DNA of 64,000 nucleotides from positions 139,252,001 through 139,316,000 of the forward strand of contig OX597817.1 of assembly GCA_951406725.2 (NCBI GenBank), in the 5' to 3' direction. The stretch is from Octopus vulgaris (lineage: Eukaryota). Shown here in pieces: positions 5,186 to 27,904 of the stretch. The position numbers were made by a program, and so were the translations under genes. Below the pieces are notes generated by a model. It did no database searches, was not told where the DNA came from, and saw only the letters and a program-made list of their open reading frames with translations. The stretch's first letter is position 1, and every line of letters begins with the position of its first letter.

Positions 5186-5474
5186 ATGGTTTGTGAGAAA
5201 CAACAACAATATCATCACCACCAATTTATATAACAAAAACAACAACTGCAACAACAACCCTGTTTCCGTCTCTCATTTTAATAAAGTGCGATAATGGCTG
5301 TTTAGTTAGTTTATCATTTATTTACAAAACTTAATTTATCGTTCAACTTCCCAAAAACATATCGATTAACTTATTTTTCACACGTCACTATCAATACATT
5401 TAAATCGTTATCATTTTTTTTTTTCTGTTAAATATCATAGTTTTATTTTTCTATTTTCCTTTCGAAATATTTCC

Positions 5475-5812
5475 CTATGAATGTGCAAGACTTTGTCTTC
5501 TCTTATCATTATCTTCAGGAAGTTCGAGGTGGTGAGCTCTTTGTGCAAGCAATTCTAGTTTCTTTAGAAGCAATCCTTTAGTCAAAAGCGGCTTTTCACG
5601 TCTCTTTGCAATGTCAAGAGAGAAAGGTGAACCTCTTTTGCCGAGACCGACATCGAAATATATTTCATCACTTGAAAAATCAGGTAACGTTTTCTGCGGC
5701 GGTTCCTTGTAGAGAAAAGGTAAATCGATGATGTTCCACGGGATGTATGACCAAGGGTGGATTTTCTTGTAAAGGTTAGCCACTTCATCTCTCATTGCTG
5801 GATAGTAGTCTA
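5475..5812 (-). CDS. Terminal coding exon of the same precursor (133 aa if directly spliced): (I)DYYPAMRDEVANLYKKIHPWSYIPWNIIDLPFLYKEPPQKTLPDFSSDEIYFDVGLGKRGSPFSLDIAKRREKPLLTKGLLLKKLELLAQRAHHLELPEDNDKRRQSLAHS*
   Basis: Non-repetitive ORF preceded by acceptor TCTATTTTTTATTTGCAG| (AG at 5814-5813), phase 1; contains GKR, two KRR and two KK sites; AATAAA downstream on the minus strand at 5447-5442 and 5322-5317. Confidence 0.8.
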
Positions 5813-5879
5813 CTGCAAATAAAAAATAGATACCATTTAAAACTTCAGTGGAATTTAAAGAGGTGCAATGGAAGAATGC

Positions 5880-6170
5880 GAAGAGTCTAAGTGCTTGAAG
5901 ATGAGCTCAGTGGAACATTTGCAGATGGAAACGATGAGGGAACTGCAATTGTTGACTTTCTGGTCTGGGATGGAGGGAGCCGAAGAAAATCGTCAAGCAA
6001 TGGATGGTGGGGGAAAGCAAGAGTTAGGTTTAAGAAGAAGGTGATGTTGAGAGTTTTAATGTATGGGAAGAAGTCAAATAAATGTCGGTTGATTTGGTGG
6101 AAAGGATTGTGGATTAGGTGGGGGTGAAAGTGGAAGAGAAAGGAGACGTGTGGGGGTAAATGTCAGTATC
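5880..6170 (-). mobile_element. Possible degenerate Penelope-like RT N-terminal fragment
   Basis: Minus translation ...KVNNCSSLIVSICKCSTELIFKHLDS resembles the PLE motif K.N.PGRPIVS.C.CPTE.IS..LD. Confidence 0.35.
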
Positions 6171-6191
6171 TGCATGAGGTGTGCAGCTAAA

Positions 6192-6236
<45 letters not shown>

Positions 6237-6241
6237 ACACT

Positions 6242-6273
<32 letters not shown>

Positions 6274-8081
6274 ACTTCTCTTCCTCCCACCCAGAACACA
6301 CCAAGCTTTCCATCCCCTATTCCCAATTCCTCCGTCTACGTAGGCTCTGTAGTGACGACCATGACTTTGAGACTCAGTCTCAACGTATGGCTCACCACTT
6401 CACCCTACGTGGATACCCCCTCACCACTATCCACACCGCCCTTGCCAGAGCACGGTCCGTGGACCGTGTATCTGCTCTCTCTCCCCGAACCCGCCCTGTA
6501 GTCTCCCGCCTCCCTTTTCCCCTCACTTACCACCCCACGACCCTACGTCTCCAACGCACCATTCTTCGAGCTTTCCGTCATCTCCAGTCCGACCCGTCCA
6601 CTTCACACCTCTTCCCTAACCGACCCCTCCCCTCTTTCAAACGAGCCCACAACCTTCGAGACCTTTTGGTCCATAGCTCCTTCCCTGACCCTACCTCCCA
6701 ACCCGGCTCGTTCCCCTGCTCCCGCCCACGTTGCCGCACTTGCCCTTACCTCTCCAACACCACCCGCCTCACTAGCACCCACCATCGACCCTATCCCATC
6801 ATCCACTCCTTCACCTGCACCTCCAGCAATATTATCTATTGCATCTCTTGCTCTCTCTGCAATTCCTTGTACATCGGACAAACGGGACGCCGCTTGGCTG
6901 ACCGGTTCGCGGAACACCTTCGTGACATCCACCTTGCGAACGACACACCGGTCTCACGCCATTTCCGCTCCACCGGTCACTCCTTGCAACACCTATCTGT
7001 GTTCGGTTTGTCCTTACACAGAGGCCATCCGGATTCCCGTTTGCGCCGTGAACAGGAATTAATCTTCTCTCTTCGCTCTTATACGCCATTTGGTCTCAAC
7101 TCTCCCCCCTCCTCATCTAACCCCCTCCCCCTCCTCACCTATCCTTTCTCCCCCGACCCCTACTTCTTCAGTCCTTCATCCTTTCACCCCTACTCCCCTT
7201 CCCTTCTTCCCTCTTTCTCCCTCCCTCTTCCCCTTCCCTCTGCTCCCTCACTCCCTCTCTCCCCTTCTCTCTCCCCCTCTCCCTCTTTCCTCCTTCATCC
7301 CCCTCATCCCCTTCCTTCTCCCCCATCCTCTCCTCTCCCCCTTCCCCTCCCCCTCTTCTCCCCCCTTCTCCCCCCTTCTCCCCCTCCCCTCCCCCTCTTC
7401 TCCTCACTACACCACATGACTTTACACATCACATCACATATGATGTGCCATACTAATACACACACCAACTAATACATACTAATACGTACTAATACATACT
7501 AGTACATACTAATACTTACACCAACCCTATACATACACACGTCCAGACCCCGCATACGCACTTATACTCTCTCACACACACACACACACACCTATACATA
7601 CCAATACGTACTAATACATACTAATACATACTAATACATACACCAACCCCATACATACGCACGCCCAGACCAATCTTACGCACTAATACTCTCTCATACA
7701 CACACACACCCTTATACATACTAATACATACACCAACCCTATACATACACACATCCAGACCCCTCCCACGCACTTTTAGCTGGTCCCTCAACCCTTTTAT
7801 CAACCCTATTATCTCCCCTTATTTCGCTCTCGCGTCTCATGTTTGATCTTTGACCTCTGGCCGAAATCAGATCGCCATGTTGATTCGTTAGCTACTGCAC
7901 GCATTTTTTTCTCTCCTTCTTTCTGTGTTTTTCTCTCTCTGTGTATCTTTCTGTTGAAGAGCGTAGGCTCGAAACGTTAAAGACTTGTTTTATTTATATT
8001 TCCTGAGCGCCATACTAATACAATTGTTCGTTTGTTTTCCACCTGCCTTCGTCTTTTGTTTATTTTCATAAAGCTTCCCGT

Positions 8082-8082
<1 letters not shown>
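6274..8082 (+). mobile_element. 5'-truncated Penelope-like element (Neptune-type): RT C-terminus, Cys-linker, GIY-YIG endonuclease, pLTR with hammerhead
   Basis: SSSHPEHTKLSIPYSQFLRLRRLCS; CSRPRCRTC; NIIYCISCSLCNSLYIGQTGRRLADRFAEH; flanked by (TA)n on both sides. Confidence 0.9.
7947..7982 (+). ncRNA. Minimal type I hammerhead ribozyme motif (PLE pLTR family 1)
   Basis: cttt-CTGTTGA-a-gagc gtag gctc-GAAAC-gtta-aag; palindromic ACGT stem III. Confidence 0.6.
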
Positions 8083-8124
<42 letters not shown>

Positions 8125-8599
8125 GTGTGTGTGGGTGTGGGTCTATTCGTCGTCTCCACTCACAATTCTTGGGAGGTTCGTGAGGGGTAGAATCTGCAGG
8201 CATCTCCTCCTCTTTAGGGTCCCATCAGAAACACCAGTCATTAGACTTTCCAGGTGGAATCCCATGAGTGAGCAACGGATTCCATGGGTCTTAGGGTCCC
8301 TTGCTGGTTAGCTCGGCTCAAAAAATCCATCGTTCTTGCGACACGCACATCACATGTCTGTAGCACCCTCAATACGTAGTGGCCTCTCAATACGAAGAAG
8401 TAGTGGATCGACCTGGAGAGTCTCCATCACCTCCGAGTTACGCACCTACTTCACTAACGTTACTTCAGAGACACTAAGGAAGACCCCCTATTCGAACGCT
8501 TGTATCCGCGATCATATATACACATGCATACATACAGAATCGTATGTATGTATGTATGTATGTATGTATGTATGTATGTATGTATGTATGTATATATGA

Positions 8600-9180
8600 A
8601 ATTGGGCGGTGGGGAGTCGATTAGATCGTCCCAGTAGGCAGCTGGTACTTAATTTATCAACCTCGAAAGGGTAAAAAGCCAAGTCGACCTCGGCGGAATT
8701 TGAACTCAGAACATGAAGACAGACAGAATACCGCTAACCATTTCACTCAGCGTGCTAACGTTTCTTATTTATTTACTACCTACTAGGGGCTACACACTGA
8801 GGGTACAAACAAGGACAGACAAACAGATTAAGTCGATTACATCAACCCCAGTGCGTAATTGGTACTTAATTTATCGACCCCGAAAGGATAAAAGGCAAAG
8901 TCGACCTCGGCGGAATTTGAACTCAGAACGTAACGACAGACGAAATACCTATTTCTTTACTACCCACAAGGGGCTAAACACAGAGAGGACAAACAAGGAC
9001 AGACAAACGGATTAAGTCGATTATATCGACCCCAGTGCGTAACTGGTACTTATTTAATCGACCCCGAAAGGATGAAAGGCAAAGTCGACCTCGGCGGAAT
9101 TTGAACTCAGAACGTAACGGCAGACGAAATGCCGCTAGTCATTTCGCCCAGCGTGCTAACGTTTCTGCCAGCTCGCTGCC
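8600..9180 (-). mobile_element. Three head-to-tail SINE units (one family B, two family A)
   Basis: Repeated GTCGACCTCGGCGGAATTTGAACTCAGAAC core; junction GAAATAC|CTATTTCTTTAC at ~8948. Confidence 0.9.
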
Positions 9181-9182
9181 TT

Positions 9183-9231
<49 letters not shown>

Positions 9232-9363
9232 GAACTCACACCCACAATTGATTTGGAAACGTTTGGTTTGTGTGATTGATAGTGGTTCTCATGACGACAA
9301 CGATTTTTACTGTCGGTTTCTCGTAGAATAACTGATTCCTATTATTATTATTATTATTATTAT

Positions 9364-9413
<50 letters not shown>

Positions 9414-10016
9414 TGTTTGTTTTTATTTGTTTTCATTTTTTTTTATTTAGTTTCCACTATCATTATTAGTAAATCGTCTTCGACTGGCGATGCCTATTTG
9501 TTTAGTGGTTCCTTTCAGACAGAAAGAAAACAGATAATGGCTAAATGATAACAAACCATAGAATAAAACAATGGAACCAAGATAGCGTGAGAAGGAATCG
9601 GTATTGTAAAATCCAGCATAAATTGGATAATGGAAGAATTCCGGAGACTCTTAGACATGGAATACGCCTGTTTAATCAATTGCCCATGCTTTGTGTGTAT
9701 GCGTGCGTGCGTGCGTGTGTGCGTGTTGTGCGCTGCGTATGTATGTATGTATGCATGTTTGTGTATGTGTGTATGTTTCTGTGTGTATATATATATACGT
9801 GTGTACAAGAATTGTTAATGTCAACCCATACACACAGCGACTTGTAGAAATTGACAGAGGATCTACAGGCATACACTGACATTAATTATATACATAATTA
9901 CTTTTCTGATTTTCCTACGGCTCTACACCACACACACACACACACACATACACACACACACACACACAAATTAGTGATTGATAAGAGAACAGTAGTTATG
10001 TAACAACCTTACATTA

Positions 10017-10085
10017 GCCTACAACTGTTTCCGCTACAAGTGTGAACTGAGGGTTCATGCAATATTTTATAGCATCTTCGGAGCC
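10017..10085 (-). ncRNA. Hammerhead-like motif (PLE-type)
   Basis: rc: ggct-CCGAAGA-tgcta...tagcg-GAAA-cagttg-TA-ggct. Confidence 0.45.
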
Positions 10086-10374
10086 ATACATATATATACG
10101 TTACTTCCGATCACTTCAGCAATGTAACTACACACGTGCTGTGCGCGATTACTTTTCCTTCTTTGGACTTTCCCTTTCTTCTTTCCGACTAGGAGTTATG
10201 CTCGAAACGTCAACAACTCTCTCCTTTTACCGAGCGTCAAACTAAGACAATTCTTGTGCACGTCCACTTGTTGTCTGTTATGGTTAATTTTATTATTCAT
10301 TCATTTGAATTGACTTTACACACACACACATACACACACAGATACATACATATATATATATACATATATACATT

Positions 10375-10435
<61 letters not shown>

Positions 10436-10522
10436 TGTATATTTGTGTGTATATATATGTATATATTCCAAGTGGTGCTATTAAATCAGACATGCTGACC
10501 GAATCATATCTAAGTATTTGAG

Positions 10523-10627
<105 letters not shown>

Positions 10628-10778
10628 GGAGAGAGAATGAGAGAGAGAGAAAAATAACATCTTGAACGCAGGAGAATAATTGTGAAAACAGCTTTTCGAA
10701 AATTGGGTAAAACCCTATAAACAGAAAAAAGTGGCCATCGGCTGCTATGGAGAATCGAACCGTGTAACTCTCTCATAT

Positions 10779-10881
<103 letters not shown>

Positions 10882-10927
10882 CTATCTATCTATCTATCTA
10901 TTAATCTATCTATCTCTCTATCTTTCT

Positions 10928-11006
<79 letters not shown>

Positions 11007-11320
11007 GGTGAGCATGTGTGCGTTTCAATTGGGAGTGGTTGAGTATATACATATAGGCGCATGTACGTAGGTGTGCGGGGGCGCCTGTGTATGCATGGAC
11101 ATGCGTGCTTACGCGATTACTATGAACATTTCTACTCCCTTACCTTTACCCTCTCCCCTTTCTTAGCGGTCATCCAAATAACTCTTTTGTCTTAATAGCG
11201 GTCAATCGCACTGTAATTTCCCTTTGTTCTGACGGTCATTTTCAGAGCATTTTTCCGATAACTGAAGAGATAATAATAATCACCAGTCTTTTGGTATCTG
11301 TCAAAAATATATTAACAGCC

Positions 11321-11392
11321 AGGTTTCACCGAGATTTGAACTCCGATCGCTGGATCCAAAGTCCAGAGTGATAACCATTACACCGTGAGAAG
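11321..11392 (-). pseudogene. tRNA-Gln(TTG) pseudogene
   Basis: rc CACGGTGTAATGGTTATCACTCTGGACTTTGGATCCAGCGATCGGAGTTCAAATCTCGGTGAAACCT matches the eukaryotic tRNA-Gln consensus; the 5' acceptor strand is disrupted. Confidence 0.85.
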
Positions 11393-11949
11393 AGGACCGG
11401 TGTCTATGGATGTGGAAGGGTGACCTGAAGATAGACAGAAGCACTCATATGCGCAGTTCAAGAACAAGCGTTAAAGACCAGTTATATGAAGTGCAGAATA
11501 GACAACACTACCGATAGAATGTGTGGTGAGAGGAGTGAAACGATATGGTACATCGTTAGCGAATGCCCGAAATTGGCACAACGCGAACACTAAAGACACC
11601 ATGACAATTTGGCAAGAATGATCCATTGGGAGCTCTGTGGAAATCACAGCCTACGAAGAGGAATTCTTAGAGGTTTGGATAATTCACCTCTGGAAACAAA
11701 GGTGTTTCGTTCAACATACGAAACAACCCTTATTCAGAGACCTTTTGAGCGGAATGGGCTATTCAACCTGGAGAAAATTCAAACTGGGCCCCACCAGTTC
11801 GTCTTGATATGAGATCACCACGTCGCGCACATATGACTGTGATGCATGTGCCTGGTGCACCCTTATCAGACAAGTAGTCATGATGGGTATATACTGGGCT
11901 TCGTATATTTGTACCCCAGTGTCACTTTGATGGCATGCATTGGTCTCTC

Positions 11950-12001
<52 letters not shown>

Positions 12002-12502
12002 GAGCAAAAAATTGGTACGACCACAAACCTGAAGGCATCGTCGAAAATGGAAACGCAAAGATCCTTTGGGATTTTATGAATCAGTGCGATCATGAGATAG
12101 AGAATAGGAAGCTGGACATAGTCTTAATTGAGAAAGAAAGCAAACTATGCTGGATCATAGATATAGCATGCCCAACTGACAACAAGGTATGCGACAAGGA
12201 AGAAAGAAAAGTCGAGAGATAGGACAGGTTAGCTTGGGAAGTTAAGCAGTTGTGGTCGATGAAAAAGTAGCAGTAGTACCGATAATTGTCGGAGCCCTGG
12301 GAACAGTGAGCAAAAATCTCGAGAAGGACGTGGAACAAATAGGGGCTGCAATAAGGGTGGAGCACTTGCAGAAAACAGCACTGCATGGAACTGCTCGAAT
12401 ACTCCGGAAGGTGCTCGAAAAATAAGAGGTGTTACCTTAGTTCACTTGTCGTGAACGGCTGACACTGTAATACATCTCTAGCGTTAGAAGCTGTGCAAAG
12501 GC
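11388..12502 (+). mobile_element. R4/Dong-type RLE LINE 3' fragment, interrupted by an insertion at ~11657-12000
   Basis: TEALICAVQEQAL, RMCGERSETIWYIVSECPKLA, IHWELC, KILWDF, IIDIACP, LQKTALHGTARILRKVL; (CAA/TAA)n tail. Confidence 0.85.
11657..12000 (+). mobile_element. ~300-bp non-coding retro-element with a (TAA)n tail; partial second copy at 14960-15150
   Basis: Splits LINE coding sequence between NHSLR and RAKNWY; homologous to 14985-15122. Confidence 0.7.
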
Positions 12503-12554
12503 AATAACAACAACAACAACAACAACAACAATAATAACAATAATAATAATAATG

Positions 12555-12589
<35 letters not shown>

Positions 12590-12590
<1 letters not shown>

Positions 12591-14518
12591 GAACAGCAAC
12601 GGACCATGATAAAACGATGGCAAGAAAAGCCCCTTCATGGTAAATACTGCACTAAACTAAATGCAAAAGAAATAGACAAAGAAAAATCCCAGCAATGGTT
12701 GAGAAGCTCAGGACTCAAAGCAGAGACAGAGGGATTTTTAATTGCAGCACAAGACCAAAGCCTTCCCACCAGAAATTACCAAAAACATGTAATGAAAAGA
12801 AATATAACAAGTAACTGTAGAATATGTGGAGATGGACAAGAAACAATAAATCATATTATCTCTGGCTGCCCAGTCCTGGCTAAGAAGGAATATATTCACA
12901 GACATGACAGAGTTGGAACCTACATACACTGGAAGCTATACCAACATTATGGAATAACAACAGAAAAAAGATGGTATAGGGACACACCAGAAAAGGTCAC
13001 AGAAAACGAGAAAGCAACCATACTCTGGGATATGCCAATACACACAGATAGAGAAATTAAGGCCAATAGGCCAGACATAGTTGTCAGAGATCACGAAGGA
13101 AAAAAATGCTTTCTAATTGATGTATCAATACCAGCAGATGAGCTCAATGCTGAAAACAAGATAATAGGTATTAACACTTTAGCTGTCCCAGTTATAAGTT
13201 ACAGCTACAATATCCTTAACTGGACACTAAATGAACTGACTAAAATAGATAGGAAAACAAGAAAAATAATGACAGGATCTAGGATGCATCACCCAAAATC
13301 TGACATAGAAAGACTATATATACAACGTATAGAAGGTGGTAGAGGCCTTATACAGCTGGAAAACTACTATAAAATAACCACCATAGGACTGCAAAAATAT
13401 CTACTTCAGAAGGAAGGAAAACTGATACAAATAGCGGCAAAACACGAGCAAAACAAAAAACTATTCTCAGTATTTAAGAAAGCTGACAAATACAAACAAG
13501 AAATCATACCACCTAACAAATATGAAGAAGAAGAAGAAGAAGAAGAAGAAGAAGAAGAAGAAGAAGAAGAAGAAGAAGAAGAAGAAGAAAAGCTATAAAA
13601 CAAATGAAATCCAAACTAAAACTAGAACAGCAAAGAACCATGATAAAACGATGGCAAGAAAAGCCCCTTCATGGTAAATACTGCACTAAACTAAATGCAA
13701 AAGAAATAGACAAAGAAAAATCCCAGCAATGGTTGAGAAGCTCAGGACTCAAAGCAGAGACAGAGGGATTTTTAATTGCAGCACAAGACCAAAGCCTTCC
13801 CACCAGAAATTACCAAAAACATGTAATGAAAAGAAATATAACAAGTAACTGCAGAATATGTGGAGATGGACAAGAAACAATAAATCATATTATCTCTGGC
13901 TGCCCAGTCCTGGCTAAGAAGGAATATATTCACAGACATGACAGAGTTGGAACCTACATACACTGGAAGCTATACCAACATTATGGAATAACAACAGAAA
14001 AAAGATGGTATAGGGACACACCAGAAAAGGTCACAGAAAACGAGAAAGCAACCATACTCTGGGATATGCCGATACACACAGATAGAGAAATTAAGGTTAA
14101 CAGACCAGACATAGTTGTCAGAGATCATGAAGAAAAAAATGATTTCTAATTGATGTATCAATACCAGCAGATGACAACGTTTCTCTAAAAGAAATGGAGA
14201 AACTTTCAAAATACAAAGACCTGGAAATAGAGGTAACCAGAATGTGGAATCTAAAAACAGAAACAATTCCTATCATAGTAGGTGCATTAGGCATGATAAA
14301 AAAATATTCAGACAAATACATAACAAAAACACCAGGACTTACAAACACATATAACATACAGAAAATTGCACTACTAGGCACTGCACACATCCTACGCAGA
14401 ACACTTTCCATACAATAACCATCAGAGCATCACAACAAATCACAGCACATACCCAAGGCACACAGAGCTAGTAGTGAAGTGAAAGCACACTATAAAAATA
14501 AAACTACTGAATAATAAC

Positions 14519-14590
<72 letters not shown>
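12590..14590 (+). mobile_element. R4/Dong-type RLE LINE 3' region with an internal ~550-bp duplication and a (GAA)n expansion
   Basis: CCHC CRICGDGQETINHIISGC; RPDIVV...IDVSIP..D RLE core; KLSKYKDL; 12590-13141 is near-identical to 13624-14174; (TAA)n on both sides. Confidence 0.92.
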
Positions 14591-14592
<2 letters not shown>

Positions 14593-14594
14593 TC

Positions 14595-14879
14595 AATATG
14601 AGCGGTATAGAAAAAATAGCAAAATACTAGGACGTAGCTATTGAATTGCAGAGACTATGGAAAATGCAAGTAAAATGTATCCCAGTAGTTATAGGTGCAT
14701 TGGGAACAAACCCTAAAGATGGACAGAGGTAATAGGCATAAAGCCCAGTTCAGTACAGCTGCAAAAAAAACAGTGTTATTGGGGACAGCCAGGATACTTA
14801 GGTGAGTTCTTAACATCTAAGGTTATTTGTAGACCGATGCTGGGAATTTTTTTTTCCAATAGTCTAATGTGCTGTGCGC

Positions 14880-14949
<70 letters not shown>

Positions 14950-14958
14950 TAATAATAA
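14595..14958 (+). mobile_element. Short 3' end of another RLE LINE with a (TAA)n tail
   Basis: EKIAKY*DVAIELQRLWKMQVKCIPVVIGALG...VLLGTARILR. Confidence 0.8.
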
Positions 14959-15809
14959 AGTGGGGGAGCATCATAGCCATGTGTTGAGAGGGATTCTTTG
15001 GGGTTTGAATAATTCACCTTTGGAAACATGGGTGTTTCGTTCAACATCCTTAAACAACCCTTATTCAGGGACCTTTTGAGTGGGATGGGTTACTCAACCT
15101 GAAGAAAATTCAAACTGGGCCGCACCTGCACGGTCATGTGCTGTTTATCTTGCAAGACATATAAAGAGTTAAGCAGTTTCGTTTCATTTTCTTAGAATAA
15201 TTCAAAGATCTTTTATAACCGAATAAGAAAACGTTAGCTTGAAGAAGGAAGTAAAATTGATAGATGTGACTCGGCTATTTTACTGATAGCTGTTATCAAA
15301 CGGTATGGAACTCATTTTGGAGAAGCCAACTCATCGTGTTCCCCCAATCACCCTAATCCCACAAGGCCCTAATTCCACAACCTTACGTGTACCCTCAGAC
15401 GGTCGTCTTCTCACATCTATAATGTTCTCATATTTATTTTTTTTTGGTGGTGTTCTTAGGTTGTGAAGTCATCTAATAATGACTCTGTTCAGAAGGCTGT
15501 AATATCATTTGATAAAGGAGCACGGTACAAGGAATTCATGGAGCAACTGCAACTTTAAATACCTTTACTCGAGGTCTCAAATATACACAAATTGAATGAT
15601 AATGGAAAGAGTTTGACGAAAGGACCATGTTCGTCTTCTGCATAACCTCATGTGCTCGCTGCCGCGGGTGTGCAAGAAATAGTTAGGTCATATCCTTGCT
15701 CTCCGGCGTCTCGATGCGAAAAGAGGAAGTGCCAGGGCTTAGTGTCCGAATCTTAGTGCTGCTTGCAAAATAGTTGGCAAAATAGTTACCATTCAAGTAC
15801 CGCGGTGAA

Positions 15810-16050
15810 GGTTCATGGTCTCGTGGTTAGGGTGTTGCACTCACGACCGCTAGACCGTGGTTTCGATTCGCGGACAGAGCAGCACGTTGTTTCCTAGAGC
15901 AAAACACTTCATTTCACGTTTTTCGAGTCCCCTCAGTTGGAAAACATGTATAACCCCGTGACGGGATGGCATCCCGTCCCGGGGTTGGGGGCGATCGCAC
16001 TAAAAACCAGGTAACTGCCCCTATGAGTCCCAGAACGCGAGACAGTGTTT
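15810..16050 (+). mobile_element. Old tRNA-derived SINE (family E); relative at 44840-45130
   Basis: TGGTCTCGTGGTTAGGGTGTTGCACTCAC...GGTTTCGATTC head. Confidence 0.6.
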
Positions 16051-16729
16051 ACATGTCCTGGCTTCGAAAGAAGTGACTCTTCCCTCTCCTATCTCCACCC
16101 CACCACCAAACGTGTGGCGTAGCACCAATATGAGAGGAGATGGAAAGAAAGGGAAAATGGAATTCTGTAAGGATTGAGGGTCATGGAGGGGCGGGGGCGG
16201 AGACTAAATTGTGCATGTCCCATTAAATCAGCCGCTTTTGACGTGTTCCATTATTTACTACGATCGTGCAGATCGATGTTTCTATGGAGTTTTGTCTTCA
16301 ATTAAATGGCAAAGAAATCAACTGACTGCAGGCATCAGACATTAAAACCATAATGAAACATAAGGGTGGAGAGATGGGTGAGCGGGTGGATGGGAGGGAG
16401 GGATAATGTTAAGACAAAAAGATCATTCTGATCTCTCCCAGACTCACGACAATGACTGAAGAGGAAATGAAAGAGAAGTGATAAGGTGGAGGAGATGGCG
16501 GCGGTGGTGGTGGTGGGCGTGGTGGGAGCGGCGGCAGTGGCGGCAGCGGTGGCGGGGGTGGAAAAGGTGGGTGTGGGGAAGCTGGAAAGGGACAGAAGGA
16601 AAAAAAGATAACAATAAAAAGAAAATAGAAAAATGTTAAAGGAAATTGTATTAAGGAAATGAGAAGAGAGGAGAAAGGGGGGGAAACTGCAGGAAACGGA
16701 AACTATAAAACACACACACACACCTTTTT

Positions 16730-16990
16730 ATCTTTTTGGACTGCGGCCATGCTGGGGCACGTCTTGAATTTTTTTTCACTCGAATGAATCAACCCCAGTA
16801 TTTATTTTTTTTTCTTATAAGTTTAGTACTTTCGCTGAACTGCATGAAAAGTTACGGGGACGTAAACACACCAACACCGGTTGTTAAGTGATGGGTGGGG
16901 CAAACATTGACACACGCGCATATATACACGACGGACTTCTTTGAGTTTCCTTTTACCAAATCCACTCATAAGGCTTTGGCAGTTTAGGCA
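16730..16990 (-). mobile_element. SINE family C, degenerate
   Basis: GACTGCGGCCATGCTGG...ACCAAATCCACTCA similarity to 18620-19000. Confidence 0.7.
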
Positions 16991-17183
16991 GTTTGTAATC
17001 TTCGAGTGGTGAGCATCAAAAACAATGCCCTGGAACAATCAAAAACAACGTCTTCGGCCTGGTGAGTATCGAGCTGAACACCCCTCGCTCGTTGAGTAAC
17101 ATCAAAGGATCTGCTAGCTAGGAAACATATGTAGCCTGGATTTTACTTGCTCCACTCCCTCAATTTGGATATGTATATATATA

Positions 17184-17551
17184 TCTATAATATAAATTGG
17201 ACATGGGCGATCGTCGTATTCTTTCTTGTCTTGAGGTTCACAGCCAAACGGCAGGGTGGATTCGCATGAAAAATGGCACACATGTGGTGACAGGTGCATA
17301 CATTGTGCTGCGGTTTGTATTTTTTCCCTAGCCCCCATACTTACCGAGAAAATCGATTAAAACTGTTTCTAATGGATTTCCCGTTTGTTCCGCCATTAAA
17401 ACAACCAGTTGCTCACACAGCTGGGATATACCATTTCGCTAGCAACAAGGGGAGTACAGGATGACAGTCAGCCAAAAATTTCGCTATGCTGTCACTCTTT
17501 TTCTCTCTCACATACACACGCGCAAGCACCACGCCCGCACACACATACGCA

Positions 17552-17610
<59 letters not shown>

Positions 17611-17862
17611 ACACATGTCCATTTCATATATCTTTCAATTTCTGTTCTCTTCAAAAAAAAATTTTAAGGACACACTGTTTACAAAAATAGGGATTAATGT
17701 ATAATTTCTTTCTACGTTCATAATTAAATCAATGTTTTAATTATTACACAGAGGTCCAATACAATAGTTCTCAGAAACAGACTACGTACAAATGCGTCAA
17801 TCATCACAACACACACCTTCACATCATCCAAACAGACCGGGTGAAACCGGGCTCAGCTGCTA

Positions 17863-17863
<1 letters not shown>
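17184..17863 (+). mobile_element. Non-autonomous Helitron
   Basis: 5' TC(TATAATATAAA), 3' hairpin CCGG gtgaaa CCGG followed by CTAG, inserted between A and T. Confidence 0.7.
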
Positions 17864-17919
<56 letters not shown>

Positions 17920-18082
17920 TATACATACATACATACATATATATACATACATACATATATATATAATTGGTAAAGAAAACTGAAATAAGCAGAAATGAAT
18001 GATGTCAAATAATAATAATAAGTCTTAATTAGTTACAATAAGTTCCCCAGAGTTCCCTCTCTCTCTCTCTCTCTCTCTCTCT

Positions 18083-18116
<34 letters not shown>

Positions 18117-18619
18117 CACGCATACACACACACACATATTATTCAAGTGTCGAGTGATTGATTTATATCTGCTGTCAAAATATATTTAATAAAGTGACTG
18201 GATTGAATAGATTGAAGGCAAAAAAAAAACCCCGTTAGATGACAAAATATCGTCAAGTGACGGACATGTTAATGACGCGCGCATATATTGCAATTTCCTT
18301 TTATCATTTTATCACTTTAATCCATCAAACTGATGAACACCTCATTTCATTCCCATTTACTGACAGCAATTACACACTTACATTTCTTATAACACGTTTA
18401 GGAAGCACTTAAAGTTTTTTTTACTAGTCTTGAAAGCCTCATACCTTCTCTGTGATCTGACTCATTCTTTGTCTTGTTTTACACATTCTTACAAGTTAGT
18501 TCCTCAATCTCTGTCTCTGTCTCTCACTCTCACTCTCTCTCTCTCTCTCTCTCTCTTCCTCTTTCGTTATTCTGTCTTATGTATGTGTATGTGTATATAT
18601 ATATATATATATATATACT

Positions 18620-19001
18620 CTTTACTCTCTTTTACTTGTTTCAGTCATTTGACTGCGGCCATGCTGGAGCACCACCTTTAGTCGAGCAAATCGACCCCGG
18701 GACTTATTCTTTGTAAGCCCAGTACTTATTCTATCGGTCTCTTTTGCCGAACCTCTAAGTGACGGGGACGTAAACACACCAGCATCGATTGTCAAGCAAT
18801 GCTAGGGGGACAAACACAGACACACAAACACACATATACCTATATATATATATACACATATATACGACAGGCTTCTTTCAGTTTCCGTCTACCAAATCCA
18901 CTCACAAGGCATTGGTCGGCCCGGGGCTATAGCAGAAGACACTGAACCCGGAACCATGTGGTTGGTTAGCAAGCTACTTACCACACAGCCACTCCTGCGC
19001 C
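18620..19001 (-). mobile_element. SINE family C
   Basis: Head GGCGCAGGAGTGGCTGTGTGGTAAGTAGCTTGCT (rc); homologous to 35125-35500 and 38830-39040. Confidence 0.85.
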
Positions 19002-19088
19002 TATATATATATTTAAATTTTATTTGTTAGGGAATAAAAATCCCGGCATAACAGGGGTTCAAATTATTCTCAATGAAGAAATATATAT

Positions 19089-19268
19089 TTTAATTTAGAG
19101 GTAGTAGGCCCCTTCATCTCACCATATAAAAAATAATTTTTATTTTAAATACCTACTATTTTATAAGTTGGCAAGTTATAAAGGGCAAATTATAAAATAG
19201 TAGGTATTTAAAATAAAAAATTCTTTTTAATATGGTGAGATGAAGGGGCCTACTATCTCTAAATGAAT
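19089..19268. repeat. Inverted repeat (~75-bp arms), probably an inverted pLTR-type remnant
   Basis: TAGTAGGCCCCTTCATCTCACCATAT...ATATGGTGAGATGAAGGGGCCTACTA. Confidence 0.75.
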
Positions 19269-20124
19269 ATATACATACATACATACATACATACATACAT
19301 ACATACATACATACATACATACTTACATATAAGAGACCATAGTGTACGTACGCCGCCATATATATATATAAAGGAATACAAAAAATGGGGCAAGAACGCA
19401 AAACATCCGGACAGATGATACAAAAACGGGACATACACACACATATAAACATGCATACGCACATAAATCCACTCACTAGCGTAGCTAGAGTGTGTGCCGT
19501 CCGGGATGGCCCTTATGTTTGCCACCTCTGAACCCCACAAAAAACACATATAGCCTACAGCAGACCCAAAATGCCCCCCCCTTACCGCTAGTGCATGCAC
19601 TGAAGCACAAGTACATGTACGTAATTGTATGTATGCACAGGTATATAAGCATGTGTGTGCTTACAGGTACACGCACACAAACAGGCATAGAATTATCTGC
19701 TCTTCAGTTTTATAATTTCAATCAATAATAATTAAAAAATAATATTTAAATGAAACGAAAAGAGAAGGGAAAAGAAAAAGAAAAAAAAAAAAAAGAGAAA
19801 TAAGCAACGAATGAAAAGAAGACGGGGAGAGCGGACAAAATGGCTAAGCCATTGCCAGGGGATGTCTTTCTGACAAGATAGAGTAAAAAGAATAAGGCCA
19901 GAATGAAGGAGAGACATATAGAAGAACAAATAGACACTGAAGAGGTCACAGAATGTGTGACGAAAGAACTTTGACAAAATAATAACGAATTATAATAAAA
20001 CTGATGCATTTCGTATTTCTTGAGACTTCTCAATGCTATCAACCCAGAGATTTTTTTCTACTGCCTGGCATGCTTCTATAATACCAGTGAATTCTTTATT
20101 CATTATATTCTACATATATTCTTT

Positions 20125-20333
20125 TCTACTCTAGGCACAAGGCCTGAAATTTGTGGGGAGAGGGGCAGTAAATTAGATCGTCTCCAATATGCAACTGGTA
20201 CTTAATTTATCGACCCTGAAAAGATAAAAGGCAAAGTCGACCTCGGCGGAATTTGAACTCAGAACATAAAGACAGATGAAATACCACTAAGCATTTCGCC
20301 CAGTGTGCTAACGTTTCTGCCAGCTCGCCACCT
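20125..20333 (-). mobile_element. SINE family B (same head/core as family A, different tail); others at 43530-43717, 57005-57170, 58290-58500
   Basis: Core GTCGACCTCGGCGGAATTTGAACTCAG with GGCACAAGGCC tail. Confidence 0.85.
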
Positions 20334-20890
20334 TGGATGTTTCACGAGTTTTGTGGAAAGCGCTGTTGGATGGAATGCCTTTCTTTAAATTTTTTTTCCT
20401 TCGTTTTAAGTCAACTGTTTAAATTTCACTGGAGTTTTGTTACACCGTCCCTAGTTGACATAGGGTGATGAAACAACTGCTAGCAGAATATATCCTACGT
20501 ATATTGAAGCGCGAATTTCATTTAAGCAGATGACAATGGAGTACACAGCATTGACGAGAATCAAGAAAAGCAAAAATGCCTCTGTTGCTCTCATGATTCA
20601 ATGCAACAATGATGTTTGTCTTGCTTGGATATATGTTGTGCTTTTAGCAATGAAAGTTTACGAAGGGATTTTATCTCAGACAATCTTAGCGGAGTATATA
20701 TATTTAATATGATACACGAGTGGTGACATATGTACCATACACACACTCACACGCGCGCGTGCATACATACATACATACATACATACATACATACATACAT
20801 ACATACATACATACATACATACATACATACATACATACATACGTACATACAAACATACGCACATACATACGCACATACATACATACATAC

Positions 20891-20921
<31 letters not shown>

Positions 20922-21259
20922 CATACATACATACATACATACATACATACATACATACATACGACAGGGAAACTGACCAGCTGGTTCGTACATTACAAGT
21001 CCAATCTGCGAATGGAACAGTAAAAATATGCAAGACTTTTCTCAAGTTCTAAATGTAAATTTGTCTGTGTTAACTACATCCCAAAGATGGAGCCTTGTAT
21101 CTTTGTTGGAAACCGACTCCCTCCTCAGTGGAAGATTTATAATAATTAAAAAATAGAAGAGACATACATACATACATACATACATACATACATACATACA
21201 TACATACATACATTGATAGCGAGTGCGTCAGGGAAGTGGGTTGTGGCCGCTGCTGTTTG

Positions 21260-22340
21260 CGATAGCCTCTCTCGGATATACCATCCGTCATACAGGCAGC
21301 CACTCTTACTGGCAATGCGGACTATACAAATGTAGCAGAAGTAGTGAAGGATCCTCTTCGGACTGAAGAAAATAAGATGCAACTTAATGCAAAAAGATTC
21401 CAAGCCCTTCGCTTTCAGCTTGTGCTAACAAGGATAGTTTGGACCAAAAAAGAGCGGCAATCCCAGAGTCAAGTCCAGGGCGTGACCTGGCGATTCATAT
21501 GAGCAACGATGCTTTGTTTCATGTACATATCACCATGATGGTGGAAGTGTGCAGGCGAATGGTCGGATGGATTCTGAGAACTTCCAGAACAAGGGACTCG
21601 GAAATCATGCTGGTTGGTTCTATGAAAGACATTTGTCCATGGCTGTCTGGGCTACTTACTGATCACAATTATTGTCACGTCATTGTGCCAAATTAATAGC
21701 AGAACTTGAGGCAGTTCAGCGGTACTAAACTATGTAGACTACCTTAATGAAACACTTGAGCTGCTGGGAAAGACAGGAAAAGCTACGACTCTCCTCTCTG
21801 AAGCGAAGACGGAAAATATATGCGATAATATACATATGGAAGATCGTAGAGGATAGGCACCAAAGTTTAGCCTCACGAGTTATACTTGCTCTCGAACACT
21901 GCGCTGTTCTAAGAGCGCCACCCATCCCGTTCAGTGTAAGGATGACGTACAGCAATAGCTTGGGATACAAAGGCTCACAGCCATTTAATATCTTGCCAAA
22001 AAACTCAGAGATTTACATGGTGTGTGGGTAGTCATTTTCAAGAAATACCTATTTCTTTACTACCCACTAGGGGCTAAACATAGAGATGACAAACAAGGAC
22101 AGACAAACGGATTAAGTCGATTATATCGACCCCAGTGCGTAACTGGTACTTATTTAATCGACCCCGTAAGGATGAAAGGCAAAGTCGACCACGGCGGAAT
22201 TTGAACTCAGAACGTAACGGCAGACGAAATACTGCTAAGCATTTGATCTTTTGTTGTCCAAGATCCCAGATGGACCTACATCATAACAAGAAACTCAAAA
22301 AAGGGCAGCAATAACAAACTTCCTCCTTCGCCGAATGCCA
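21260..22340 (+). mobile_element. Degenerate CR1/L2-group LINE RT/3' remnant interrupted by SINE A (22049-22240)
   Basis: EENKMQLNAKRF, RDLAIHMSND, RRMVGWILRT, SLKRRRKIYAIIYIWKI; related to 59636-61250; fragment duplicated at 23876-23990. Confidence 0.75.
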
Positions 22341-22541
22341 ACCCCATGAGAATGGTCATTGAGAAGGTGATGATACAGGTTGTGATCCAGTATGGCCACA
22401 GTCACTGGATTGAAAAGCACAAAAGAAGATAGAGAGAGAGAGGGAGGAGAGATGTTATTAATTGGTTGCGGGATCCGATAGAGTCAAAGAATTTTAATAA
22501 TAAGGACAGCAAGATAGAGAAGAGCCTATCTGTGGGTTAAC

Positions 22542-22596
<55 letters not shown>

Positions 22597-22748
22597 GAAA
22601 GAGAAATAAAGAATATCTGGAATGCAGGAGAGTTTCTGTGAAAACAGCTTCAGAAAATACTATACGCGGAAACAAGTGGCCAGCCACTACTACAGAAAAT
22701 CGAACTCTGTATCTCTCTCTTGCTCGCTCGCTCCCTCTCTATCTCTCA

Positions 22749-22821
<73 letters not shown>

Positions 22822-22823
<2 letters not shown>

Positions 22824-23005
22824 CCATGATAGATCGTTAGCCACTACACATTCTTTATTTTCTCTCCTTGTTTCTTTCTGTGTTCCTTTCTGTGGAAGAG
22901 CGTAGGCTCGAAAAGTTAAAGACTTCTTCACTTCCCGAGCATTAAACTAATACATCTGTTTGTCTTCGTCTTCTGTTGTTTTTTTTTTTTGTGATTATCC
23001 CCTTA
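22822..23005 (+). mobile_element. PLE pLTR family 1 copy with a degenerate hammerhead (22886-22921)
   Basis: CCATGATAGATCGTTAGCCACTAC...CTGTGGAAGAGCGTAGGCTCGAAA; adjacent to (TA)n. Confidence 0.75.
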
Positions 23006-23027
23006 TACACACACACACACACTCACA

Positions 23028-23074
<47 letters not shown>

Positions 23075-23234
23075 CACGGTATCAATCGAATGCTGTTATG
23101 CTTTAGTGATCACACAATGCGCTTCGCATTGCTTTCGCTTCTGGATGGTGCCGTTACCGCCGTAGGAAAATCGCTGACCAATACCAGCATCTCTGGAGTG
23201 TTTGATTATACACACAGACTCACAAACACACTCA

Positions 23235-23330
<96 letters not shown>

Positions 23331-24059
23331 CATGCATTTGAACAATAAATGATAAATGATATCATTGACATTTCAAAAATTAATTTTTTGCTGCCATTTC
23401 AATGCATTACACGTATTATCACAATTAAATAATTAATTAACAATATAATTATATACGGTGTGAGAATACCTTGTAGATTCATTAAACAATCTAGGCAAGA
23501 TAATCCAACAATATTTTTCTTGTTTTGTTTTCATTCACAAGAATCACTTCATTTATTCTGCGTGAACTTCTCACCTGCGTCGTTTAAAAGCTTTTGTAAA
23601 CACTTCTCTCATTTACACACATCACAATGCTTCCGCAAACTACAACAGCTTTATACACACACACACACACACACACACGCACGCGCGCGCGCTATGTATA
23701 TATTAATAGAATGAAAGGCTACCCAGGCAAGCAACAGGTATTGAGTCAGATTTATATTAATACAACGAATGTTCATAATAGATGAACTTACAATTTTAAA
23801 ATTTGAGAATCCTTCAGTTTTACCTATGTGACGACTTGGTTCTACCTACCAAACCATGTCATTTCAAAACTATGGACTTGAGGCAGTTCAGCGGTGCTAA
23901 ACTATGAAGGCTGTCTCAATGAAACACTTGAGCTGCTGGGAAAGACAGGAAAAGCTACAACTCTCCTCCCTGAAGCAAAGACGGAAAATATAAAGCCAGG
24001 AACTTTTCAGTCCCAGCCCCTCGTATATATGTTATGTATGTGTTTATGTGAGTGAGTAT

Positions 24060-24443
24060 GGAAGCACTCCGTCGGTTACGACGACGAGGGTTCCGGTTGA
24101 TCCGAATCAACGGAACAGCCTGCTCGTGAAATTAACGTGTAAGTGGCTGAGCACTCCACAGACATGTGTACCCTTAACGTAGGTCTCGGAGATATTCAGC
24201 GTGACACAGAGAGTGACAAGGCCGGCCCTTTGAAATACAGGTACAACAGAAACAGGAAGTAAGAGTGAGAGAAAGTTGTGGTGAAAGAGTACAGCAGGGA
24301 TCACCACCATCCCCTGCCGGAGCCTCGTGGAGCTTTAGGTGTCTTCGCTCAATAAACACTCACAACGCCCGGTCTGGGAATCGAAACCGCGATCCTATGA
24401 CCGCGAGTCCGCTGCCCTAACCACTGGGCCATTGCGCCTCCAC
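24060..24443 (-). mobile_element. tRNA-derived SINE family D
   Basis: Head GGCGCAATGGCCCAGTGGTTAGGGCAGCGG...GGTTTCGATTCCC; 15-bp TSD TATGTGAGTGAGTAT. Confidence 0.9.
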
Positions 24444-24989
24444 TATGTGAGTGAGTATACGTGTGTGAAAGTGATCCTCAAATCGGAGACGAACGCAAAT
24501 GTATCTACACTGACGGATCTTGAATAAGAATTACTTTATATAATATTTGACAGAGGAAAATAAAATGAATGAAAATTGAACGGAGAACAAAAGGATAATT
24601 AGAGATGGAATATGGCGGACGCTGGCTATTTACACACAAACATGCTTCAGGTTTAGTACAACACTATTTCTATATTTCTGGGGAAACCGGAACTGTGTTA
24701 AGAAAGATCTCCATTGATAACTTTTTAAAAACGTGGATTGCTTGACGGATGAGCGTATTTCCGGTTACACGAACGAATGTCGGCCACACACTAACTCTCA
24801 AATTACGTATTTAATTACGTTTCTTCTTGTTTTATATTTTTATCTTTAGTATTTTTCCGGTAAAAGTAAATTAGTCTGACAGGTGAAATAAAAGTGAAAT
24901 ATGCATCAGAGATGCTTCACCTGACGCAAGAAACTGTAAGAGCTATTCGGAGCTTTTGCAAGCTCTTCTAAATCCATTGCAAAACTAGA

Positions 24990-25620
24990 AACCCTTCCGT
25001 ATCATCAGCAAGTATCTCAAGGTCACAAGTATTTCGCCCCTTAACCTGTACACTACGCCTGCGTAGGGCAGCCAGAGCTAAGCTAGTTTTCACCCACGGA
25101 AGGGTTCCACGTTCAGTCTTTTATCAACCAAAGCCATCTTAGGCTAGTTTCAGCTGTTGTGTCTATTTCCTTACTGGCTTTCTTCAGTTGTCTGGATTCC
25201 TGACCTATCTTCTACAGGAAATAGCTCATTGATCCAAATGAAAAGCCGCGACCTCTTCAGTGGGGAATGAGGCAGCATGCCAGCTTTTGACAAGGAGCTA
25301 ATCGACTAAGTCTTGATATTTGGAGGAGAATATCACGCCTGTCCTTCCAGGACACTGTGAGTTCAGCCACGGACATTGCTTTTGTATTGCAGGAATACGT
25401 CTGGTCGGAGTGACGTTACCACTGTCTCCTCTCTTTCCGCAATATAATTGGTCAGATTATAGACTGGTCAACCTGAGACGTCTTAAGGATAACTGTCTGT
25501 TACAGAATCTCAACACCTCATTCCAGCAATTCTTCAAATGTGACATTGCAATGCAACTTTTGCAGTCCAGGGATATTTTATGTTCCTTGCTACTGTATTT
25601 TCCCTTTAGCTTTACCTGAA
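24990..25620 (-). mobile_element. Hero/NeSL-type RLE LINE 3' end, degenerate
   Basis: Minus translation TSLRPDVFL, ELTVSWKD, KYQDLV, LKKASKEIDTTAETSLRWLWLIKD. Confidence 0.75.
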
Positions 25621-26288
25621 AGATTCTATAAACTCCAGTCATTTTAATCCTAACCGCCATTTAGTGTTCATCGTACATCACTTAAGGACCTTACAGAACG
25701 ATGCTCATGGGCGAAAAATGTTTTGCTCAACAGATCTTTCGCTGATCATCACGTCTACTCTTCGAAGAATGTATCTGTTCTATGAGTTTCACTTTGGACT
25801 GAATTGTCACCCCACCCTCACTCTATCTGGAAAATCAACAACTAATATACGTCGTCATACACGTTTACTCCAATCTCTAAGTACTCAGCTATCACGATCT
25901 CTTTCAGTGTTTTAAGTTTTTCAGAGCTCATTTCACTGCTTGTACTCATATATGAGTTCACAACAATAATAGCGCGAGTCTTAAGTGGGAGTTCCTCTCC
26001 CAATTATTTGCTATCTAAAACAGACCAGAGAACAACAGTAATTTATTCTGAAAATTATTCAAAAGTAACAAGAGCTAGCCGAACAGTTGTTTGTGATTGA
26101 AGGAGTTCAAGGAGCTGTAAAGGCAGCAGTGAACTTGTATGAAAAGAAAGAAATACTTTGAGCCAAAGTAACAAGTTTTCGTTGACGAAATCTAAGAGAG
26201 AAAGGTTTGTTTAGGGAGAATAGATTCTGTGTAAAAGCAAGTTGAGAAATGTTGGAAAACAGAATACATAACTTATAAAAATGATGTG

Positions 26289-26893
26289 CAGGAACGTCGC
26301 CAAGCCCCTGCAACTCCTGCGGTTGTAGGGGGCCTCCGCGGTTCAGGGGTCTCATATTAAGATCAAAGTACGTAGATGAGTCATCTATTTACTTTGGTTA
26401 AAATGTTAAACAAGAATTCAACTTTGTTAACTGAAAATTTCAAGAAATAAAATAGTGATACATAGTACCTGCAAAAGTTCTTCGAAAAACAATTAAATTG
26501 TACCACGAAAGTGTACCAGACTTTGTGAATTGTCTATGATACCCATTGAACACGAACTTAGCTCTCAGCTTCATTGTTCTGAACTGATCGATGATTTCAC
26601 AAAGCGAAAAGAGCGCCGTGTTTGTCTTTGAAAGTTGCTTGAATTACAAAAATGCTTTCTTATTCATGTCTGGAAGTTTTACTTATTGAAATTTGTAATA
26701 GACCTAAATAAATTTAACTTGATGCACTTTTAAAGATGTTCTTTAGGATAACGTGAAATATTGAACTTCGGACAGAATAAAGTAAAATATATTTATGAAT
26801 AAAAGGTGCTTAGATTATGAATTTTGATTGAAGGGGTAGGGCCCTCGAAACAAAAAGTTGCAGGGGGCCTCTAAAAGTTAAACGGCGGAACTG
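26289..26893 (+). mobile_element. Internally deleted hAT (Tip100/ZMYM1-like) element
   Basis: CAG...CTG termini, 8-bp TSD ATGATGTG/ACGATGTG, C-terminal remnant LSMIPIEHELSSQLHCSELIDDFTKRKERRVCL*. Confidence 0.8.
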
Positions 26894-27077
26894 ACGATGT
26901 GTTAAAAGATATCAAGTTAGAGTTTTGAGTTTCTCACAGGAATAAAAATGTAGCCTTTATGCTTGAAGTAGATCGTGTGTAGGGTCAAGATGTATGGTGT
27001 ACAGGGCGAATAAACCCTAACTTCGAAGTCGCTGTCGACCCTTTTCTTTGGTACACACACGCGCGCGCTTATGTATG

Positions 27078-27255
27078 TAGGGAGAGTTTACGAAAAAAAC
27101 AAAAGACGAAGACAGGTGGTATACAAAACAAACAGATGTATTAGTATAACGCTCAGGAATAGAGAAAGTCTTTTACGTTTCGAGCCTACGCTCTTCTACA
27201 GAAAGGGACACAGAAAAAACAGGGAGAGAAACAAGGAGAGAAAAAAAGGAGAGAA
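27078..27255 (-). mobile_element. PLE pLTR family 1 copy with hammerhead (27170-27205)
   Basis: rc cttt-CTGTAGA-agagcgtaggctc-GAAACGTA-aaag. Confidence 0.75.
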
Positions 27256-27824: not shown

Positions 27825-27904
27825 GTCGCTGTTCTTCTTCTCCTTTTTCTTCTTTTTCTTCAATAATAGTAATCGTAAGAAGTATTTGGTTCTAGTTGAC
27901 TGTT

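Follow-up and report, generated by a model that had tools for sequence, protein, structure and literature searches.

A putative second, divergent allatostatin-A/buccalin-type neuropeptide precursor in Octopus vulgaris

In a 64-kb stretch of Octopus vulgaris DNA, analysed as a whole and called the window below, we identified a gene on the minus strand whose product is very probably some kind of precursor that is processed to peptides. From its sequence we favour, with some reserve, the reading that it encodes a secreted neuropeptide precursor and is a second, divergent octopus member of the allatostatin-A (AstA)/buccalin family.

Gene organization and surroundings

The minus-strand frame 5810..5475 translates into 111 amino acids and a stop codon, and all of the peptides and basic sites quoted in the preliminary description of this DNA (KK, FDVGL-GKR, KR, a 43-residue segment and KRR) were found in that frame. 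The same holds for the KRR inside the 43-residue segment, for the terminal KRR and for the lack of a C-terminal glycine before it. The complete gene consists of two coding exons, with the signal-peptide exon lying 21.9 kb upstream of the peptide exon. Coding exon 1 (27761..27824, minus strand) encodes residues 1-21 from the start codon on, ends with the first base of codon 22, and is followed by a phase-1 GT..AG intron of 21,948 nt (5813..27760, minus strand) of which both donor and acceptor were seen. Coding exon 2 (5475..5812, minus strand) encodes residues 22-133 plus the stop codon and was delimited by its frame, its splice sites and its database match, position 5812 directly following a polypyrimidine/CAG acceptor. 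The gene product is 100% identical to P0002, the 'uncharacterized protein LOC115210315' of Octopus sinensis (133 aa): exon 1 matches it exactly, and so does the translation of the whole spliced coding sequence of 402 nt. On the 3' side of the stop codon, two AATAAA hexamers with first bases at 5447 and 5322 (5317..5447, minus strand) are candidate polyadenylation signals, but since the region is AT-rich they are possibly due to chance. Long runs of triplet repeats (CAT, CAA, CAC) lie within 27825-28800 (minus strand), immediately 5' of the ATG, and no obvious splice acceptor near the start codon was seen in this interval.

The N-terminus is the sole strongly hydrophobic stretch of the protein, with a mean Kyte-Doolittle value of 2.57 for the 11-mer from residue 4 and values of at most 1.17 elsewhere. 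Signal-peptide cleavage would be expected near residues 19-20.

No intact neighbouring gene was seen in the 64-kb window, which holds retroelement fragments and simple repeats instead, the intron included. Within the intron and near the acceptor of exon 2, an open frame at 6342-7100 (plus strand), flanked by a microsatellite and CT-rich runs, gave a weak GIY-YIG match (E 0.001, below the cut-off); we take it to be the 3' end of a Penelope-like retroelement. Fragments of non-LTR retrotransposons were found on the plus strand at 12471-14146, 30310-30831, 59868-61156 and 62688-63257, with matches to zf-RVT (E 2.7e-5) and RVT_1 (E 1.2e-8 and 6.3e-25); some of the sequence at 12471-13595 recurs at 13526-14146. 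At 46901-47398 (plus strand) there is a Gag-like fragment that includes a zinc knuckle (E 0.0028). Many copies of a short interspersed repeat, presumably an octopus SINE, are distributed over both strands (~490-720, 3874-4080, 8704-9330, 22100-22300, 43764-44216 and 57149-57481) and have near-identical conceptual translations. Neither tblastn nor a six-frame scan for amidation sites revealed paralogues or extra exons of the peptide gene in the 64 kb.

Cleavage sites and predicted products

Basic sites are present in P0002 at KK37-38, GKR79-81, KRR91-93, KK105-106 and KRR125-127; among these, KK105-106, inside the segment 94-124, is additional to the sites listed in the preliminary description. 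By standard prohormone processing, convertases would cleave at KR and KRR, and carboxypeptidase trimming together with amidation would produce one amidated peptide of 16-40 residues ending in F-D-V-G-L-amide. Because no basic site adjoins the core of this peptide, the predicted product has 16, 21 or 40 residues. Use of the possible, weak convertase site KK37-38 (5763..5768, minus strand) would give the long form, residues 39-78 (40 aa, 4791.4 Da monoisotopic; 5643..5762, minus strand), whereas shorter forms of 21 aa (2395.2 Da) after Lys57 and 16 aa (1815.9 Da) after Lys62 are possible as well. The AstA/buccalin-type core itself, residues 68-78 (1242.6 Da as an amidated 11-mer), lies at 5643..5675 (minus strand) and is followed directly by the G-K-R amidation and cleavage signal, residues 79-81 (5634..5642, minus strand).

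A tyrosine in an acidic context is, as a rule of thumb, taken as a sulfation site. Tyr73 of the core has three acidic and no basic residues within five positions and an isoleucine at -1, a borderline sequence context in which sulfation is possible.

The same processing would release two further, non-amidated products. The first is the nonapeptide 82-90 (905.5 Da; 5607..5633, minus strand) between KR and KRR, which had been offered earlier as a fallback and is indeed the product that these cleavage sites predict. The second is a Leu/Lys-rich C-terminal associated peptide of 31 residues, 94-124 (3574.0 Da; 5505..5597, minus strand), behind which the precursor ends with KRR125-127 and a six-residue tail (5478..5504, minus strand).

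An AstA/buccalin register at the amidation site

The peptide had been described as a GL-amide of the allatostatin-A/buccalin type, and the match turned out to extend past the GL-amide to Phe, Ile and Asp at positions -5, -7 and -9. In full, the register reads Asp70 (-9), Ile72 (-7), Phe74 (-5), Val76 (-3), Gly77 (-2) and Leu78 (-1), followed by GKR. The molluscan form F/Y-X-X-G-L/I-amide is thus present as F74-D-V-G-L78, with the amidation signal L78-G79-K80-R81 behind it, and the hydrophobic N-terminus seen in the hydrophobicity scan, in combination with basic cleavage sites, agrees with the secretory precursors of AstA and buccalin. Asp70 occupies the aspartate place of the 'MD' of buccalins, the residue before it being Ser and not Met or Leu. 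The arthropod form Y/F-X-F-G-L/I-amide was not found, as position -3 is Val and not Phe, but Phe at -3 is also missing from many of the spiralian AstA copies presented in the literature.

Spiralian AstA peptides commonly have Asp at -9, a hydrophobic residue at -7, Phe/Tyr at -5, Gly at -2 and a Leu-amide (Thiel 2021, PMC8557429). Several of those shown carry Val at -3, among them a phoronid type ending in Y-x-V-G-L and nemertean copies of which one reads Y-D-V-G-L (PMC8557429). In the supplement of the same study, all 25 places listed, of 80, at which VGLGKR occurs were in AstA-labelled precursors. Lottia buccalins, as displayed in the sources consulted, combine Asp at -9 with Phe at -5. For the Aplysia buccalin receptor, 19 active buccalins are reported that have FXXGL/I-amide in common; amidation is called critical there and the N-terminal MD is described as influencing potency (PMC12509031). 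A GL-amide by itself is not diagnostic, since bivalve DH44 peptides in the published sources share that ending.

Random draws were used to estimate how easily the register would arise. With the composition of the protein itself, 16 of 2,000,000 draws reproduced the strict pattern and 30 the relaxed one, i.e. a chance of ~1e-5 per amidation site, for patterns to which position -7 had been added after the peptide had been seen. The four positions that come from the literature only have a probability of 4e-5 per site, or ~0.003 once the 72 precursor groups in Thiel 2021 are taken into account. When the GL-amide is taken as given, the other three positions of the register have a probability of 7e-4 to 1.6e-3. 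Among the 119 G[KR][KR] sites in the six frames of the window, the AstA pattern occurred at a single one, which is the peptide itself. Judged by this register, the AstA lead is stronger than the preliminary description had stated.

The architecture of the gene departs from that of the family. AstA and buccalin precursors in the sources examined contain 4-29 peptides with dibasic sites directly before each, whereas the octopus gene contains one copy, with Lys62, Lys57 and KK37-38 as the nearest upstream basic residues and none within the seven positions before Asp at -9. It further differs from spiralian AstA/buccalin precursors by an acidic, Pro-rich upstream part, by an extended peptide of 16-40 aa and by its total length of 133 aa. 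What it shares with those precursors, as they are presented for Aplysia, Lottia, nemerteans (AstA1/AstA2) and a phoronid, is a signal peptide and a GKR-amidated peptide with Asp at -9, a hydrophobic residue at -7, an aromatic residue at -5, Gly at -2 and a Leu-amide. Given the single copy that lacks a dibasic site before its core, we file the peptide as an AstA-type variant whose membership in the family is not proven. A search of six segments against Pfam, with the Allatostatin model included, returned no family for any of the six, with filters that drop weak matches to short models.

Homology, class and structure

A search with exon 2 among proteins of similar length in a set of 5.8 billion proteins gave seven candidates, of which one matched, namely the protein itself. 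Likewise, the one candidate obtained with region 56-100 was the protein itself, none of 213 candidates among longer proteins of the same set matched, and a set of 1.84 billion representatives yielded the self-match only. Hence no orthologue was detected in the near-length or longer proteins of the 5.8-billion set or among the 1.84 billion representatives. A separate relative from O. bimaculoides or a decapod was not present within the length ranges searched; such relatives may be contained in the 90% cluster or unannotated, or the gene may be young or fast-evolving. PDB sequences gave no match to the protein or its segments. LOC115210315 was not mentioned in the text of any paper retrieved by the literature search or in three supplementary files of PMC9712504, and the peptide motifs of the precursor did not occur in the portions of the relevant papers and supplements retrieved. 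The cuttlefish (Sepia) neuropeptidome of Zatylny-Gaudin 2016 is reported to list two allatostatin A genes, and a decapod orthologue may thus already be in print.

Nearly all of the look-alikes that the ESM Atlas listed for the full-length protein are precursors of neuropeptides (galanin 0.91, CAPA 0.91, DH-PBAN 0.90, DH31 0.90, helicostatin 0.88). These scores support the neuropeptide-precursor class only and not a family; 4-10% of shuffled proteins reach 0.9. The single-sequence AlphaFold model has a mean pLDDT of 40.8 and contains a low-confidence helix at 100-115. Comparison by eye with the motifs of IWMPxxGY, PXXXamide/QSamide, GNamide, WGAGamide and other oyster families gave no match. 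Vertebrate-type tachykinins, which have the motif F-x-G-L-M-amide, were rejected because the motif is out of register.

The low-confidence fold, together with the fact that P0002 belongs to a single cluster of four member sequences from one contig in the 5.8-billion-protein set, is what might be expected of a gene-prediction artefact or of an unprocessed secreted protein whose basic sites are incidental. We give this explanation very little credence: the signal-peptide exon, of 64 nt, is spliced in frame over 21.9 kb through canonical sites in the gene model, which suggests transcript support, and GKR, KRR and KRR stand in prohormone order with the AstA register matched at the first.

The lack of homologues in the protein sets searched and the single-copy architecture, so different from AstA, would also fit a neuropeptide precursor that is restricted to the octopod lineage and belongs to no known family. 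In that case the AstA-like tail would reflect coincidence or convergence, and the active product might come from a different segment, with an unrelated receptor as its target. Many lineage-restricted precursors are described for molluscs in the literature consulted, and the ESM matches disagree on the family (1 of the ten best share one). We nevertheless consider an orphan origin rather unlikely, because four to five family positions fall in register at the sole amidation site, with a chance of 1e-5 to 4e-5 per site.

Relation to known octopus buccalins and to galanin and kisspeptin

Octopus vulgaris already has a canonical multi-copy buccalin precursor, octopusVulgaris.24047, which we found in the supplement of De Oliveira 2019 (PMC6425005), where 16 of 147 'Cephalopoda' places were listed. 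It contains about nine tandem copies by eye, with the register Asp at -8, Phe/Tyr at -4 and Gly at -3. The new peptide resembles these copies in its Leu-amide, in the Asp and aromatic residue upstream of it and in its occurrence in Octopus, but no likeness was seen by eye elsewhere in the precursor as given in the supplement, and the two are separate genes. As their registers differ, the new gene is apparently not a recent duplicate of the canonical one, and as a canonical buccalin exists in O. vulgaris, it can at best be a divergent second paralogue of AstA type. According to the sources consulted, nemerteans, phoronids and Platynereis have several AstA paralogues in one species.

Two other identities were considered and dismissed. 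Li 2021 (PMC8514136) reports that no buccalin precursor was found in O. bimaculoides, and the new gene might have been taken for the missing octopus buccalin; the canonical octopusVulgaris.24047 (PMC6425005) rules this out. Nor is it the O. vulgaris 'buccalin-like' PV206714, which is described as an LASGL(I/V)-amide precursor (PMC12919962). PV206714 bears the database name buccalin, ends in G-L-I-amide and is multi-copy, but belongs to a separate family that is excluded from the buccalins. The Octopus database name 'buccalin' thus sits on the LASGL-amide precursor, while the true multi-copy buccalin is found in O. vulgaris transcript data, and expression reports on Octopus 'buccalin' may concern the one or the other.

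Galanin and kisspeptin precursors are similar in architecture, since they too give rise to one or few N-terminally extended amidated peptides and an associated peptide. A signal-peptide exon, a phase-1 intron and a peptide exon form a plan that is common among secreted peptides, and we therefore regard its occurrence in both kisspeptin genes and the octopus gene as weak evidence. Galanin is the top ESM Atlas look-alike of the octopus protein (0.91, 160 shared features), whereas no sequence match was seen to the galanin N-terminus or the RF-amide of kisspeptin. The exon plan of kisspeptin genes is documented in PMC9400282, and the galanin and kisspeptin receptors are described as sister groups of the AstA receptors (PMC12509031). 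O. bimaculoides is reported to have a buccalin receptor as well as a GALR-like receptor, the latter found among molluscs only in cephalopods (PMC8514136).

The CRH/DH44 and DH31 likenesses

CRH contains P-I-S-L-D-L and E-Q-L-A-Q-Q-A-H, and the preliminary description had suggested that the 43 residues behind the amidation site match both motifs with extra residues between them and may belong to a divergent CRH/ELH relative. The two motifs stood up to inspection: a chordate-type start like P-x-S-L-D-L is present at residues 84-89 as P-x-S-L-D-I, inside the nonapeptide, and the second motif, E-x-L-A-Q-x-A-H, lies at residues 108-115 in the associated peptide, four residues wider apart than in the CRH arrangement quoted earlier. 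The inferred kinship was not supported, as the gapped score is at chance level and both the molluscan start motif and the amide are absent.

On this reading, residues 82-124 would form a diverged peptide of the CRH/DH44/ELH family with a class B GPCR as its receptor, and a family described as lost in cephalopods would have survived in octopus. In addition to the motifs, the segment is CRH-like in its 43-residue length and its Leu-rich, probably helical character, which agrees with the low-confidence helix predicted at 100-115. No ELH/DH44 is reported from any cephalopod in PMC6425005, so that the slot would be open. The joint score of the two motifs was 52, against a maximum of 36 and no equal among 20,000 shuffles, and with freely chosen segments 52 was reached by 2 of 334,000 and 25 of 358,500 random 41-mers. 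These statistics are tuned to the observation, because the motifs and their lengths were picked after the match had been seen and no gap cost was applied. With a standard gap cost and with 14 middle columns left unscored, the score falls to 37; among 100,000 random 41-mers, 250 attained this value when drawn from a generic composition and 917 when half of the composition was the protein's own. About one such match is expected over several hundred known peptides.

The organization of the segment also speaks against a CRH relative. The four extra residues coincide with A-K-R-R at the alignment gap, where cleavage would halve the peptide, so that KRR91-93 and KK105-106 interrupt what should be a continuous peptide of 36-46 aa; internal basic runs do occur in some DH44/ELH peptides shown in the literature, and interruption is not an absolute obstacle. 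The segment ends in D-N-D before KRR, with Pro120 near its end and Pro96 further upstream, and has no Gly and hence no C-terminal amide. Lophotrochozoan DH44/ELH peptides, as far as they are shown in the sources, start with [LI]-S-[ILVF]-N..L..L and end amidated; a regex search of P0002 for [LI]-S-[ILVF]-N-x-x-L-x-x-L gave no hit, and the resemblance is to the chordate form of CRH and not to the molluscan one. Pfam gave no match for the protein or its segments, and no CRF match was obtained in Pfam, in PDB or among the ESM rows listed, with HMMER filters that hide weak matches. In the ESM Atlas, residues 83-128 gave scores below 0.9 only (DUF2737 0.87, a nucleoprotein fragment 0.86, glucagon-type Hormone_2 0.85, Hormone_3 0.82). 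Hence we conclude that the AstA register beats chance and the CRH resemblance does not do so convincingly; chance is the most likely explanation of the latter, and kinship with CRH appears highly doubtful. The 40-mer 39-78, which has the right length and a GL-amide, was also considered as an ELH/DH44 peptide and rejected for its lack of the start motif and its five prolines.

The likeness to DH31 that had also been suggested was not upheld, as it is cut by KR. Peptides of the DH31/calcitonin type have ~31 aa and a Pro-amide, as in those shown for the scallop, whereas the 133 aa of the octopus precursor contain no Pro-Gly, and there is no Cys pair in the mature part.

A possible salivary-gland origin

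Octopus salivary glands are reported to produce neuropeptide mimics, unrelated ones of which may share a precursor and which have no homologues outside octopodiforms (10.64898/2026.02.02.703354). According to the same source, such mimics of prey neuropeptides arise de novo. A venom precursor of this kind, carrying an AstA mimic directed at crustacean or molluscan prey and possibly a CRH-like mimic for fish, would account for both the missing orthologues and the chordate type of the CRH likeness. We consider this very unlikely, if a shade less so than kinship with CRH. The screen in that study used AstA and buccalin models and, in the text consulted, lists stanniocalcin, luqin, myosuppressin, tachykinin and neurotensin mimics but no AstA or CRH (10.64898/2026.02.02.703354); CRH may not have been included, since none of the terms CRF, CRH and corticoliberin occurs in that text. 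Furthermore, genes of the cephalopod venom superfamily SF1 are described as tandem arrays with a second exon of 10-20 aa. The octopus gene has a second exon of 112 codons and no paralogue in 64 kb, and its plan is thus not that of SF1.

Proposed function and significance

AstA and buccalin effects are mostly inhibitory and concern muscle and feeding circuits. If the gene is a divergent AstA/buccalin-type precursor, as we favour, its amidated peptide would be secreted from neurons or endocrine cells, and by analogy with the pharmacology of the family its C-terminal pentapeptide would dock in a class A GPCR from the group that comprises the AstA, galanin and kisspeptin receptors. The candidate receptors are the buccalin receptor and the cephalopod galanin-receptor-like paralogue, at which the peptide would act as a neuromodulator. 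The extended N-terminus may determine how selective for a receptor or how stable the peptide is, as in the single-peptide precursors of galanin and kisspeptin, and the downstream peptides would most likely be processing by-products.

A more specific and distinctly less probable proposal, which we would place somewhat below the orphan origin discussed above, is that the peptide is the ligand of the cephalopod GALR-like GPCR, a protostome member of the AstA/galanin/kisspeptin group of peptides released from a galanin/kisspeptin-style single-peptide precursor alongside the multi-copy buccalin system. No ligand of this receptor was reported in the literature searched, as far as the retrieved texts go, and the ligand of lophotrochozoan kisspeptin-type receptors is likewise given there as not known. 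The relation of AstA/buccalin to galanin and kisspeptin signalling is disputed (PMC8514136, PMC12509031).

At minimum, the gene is one more unannotated peptide gene for the octopus catalogue, and a search that relies on repeated AstA motifs would pass over precursors of this single-copy kind. Its predicted product, an AstA-type peptide present in one copy and with an extended N-terminus, is moreover a concrete, synthesisable candidate for GALR-like and kisspeptin-type receptors. Should it prove to be the ligand of the GALR-like receptor, that receptor clade would gain a ligand and the question of AstA versus galanin orthology would become directly testable.
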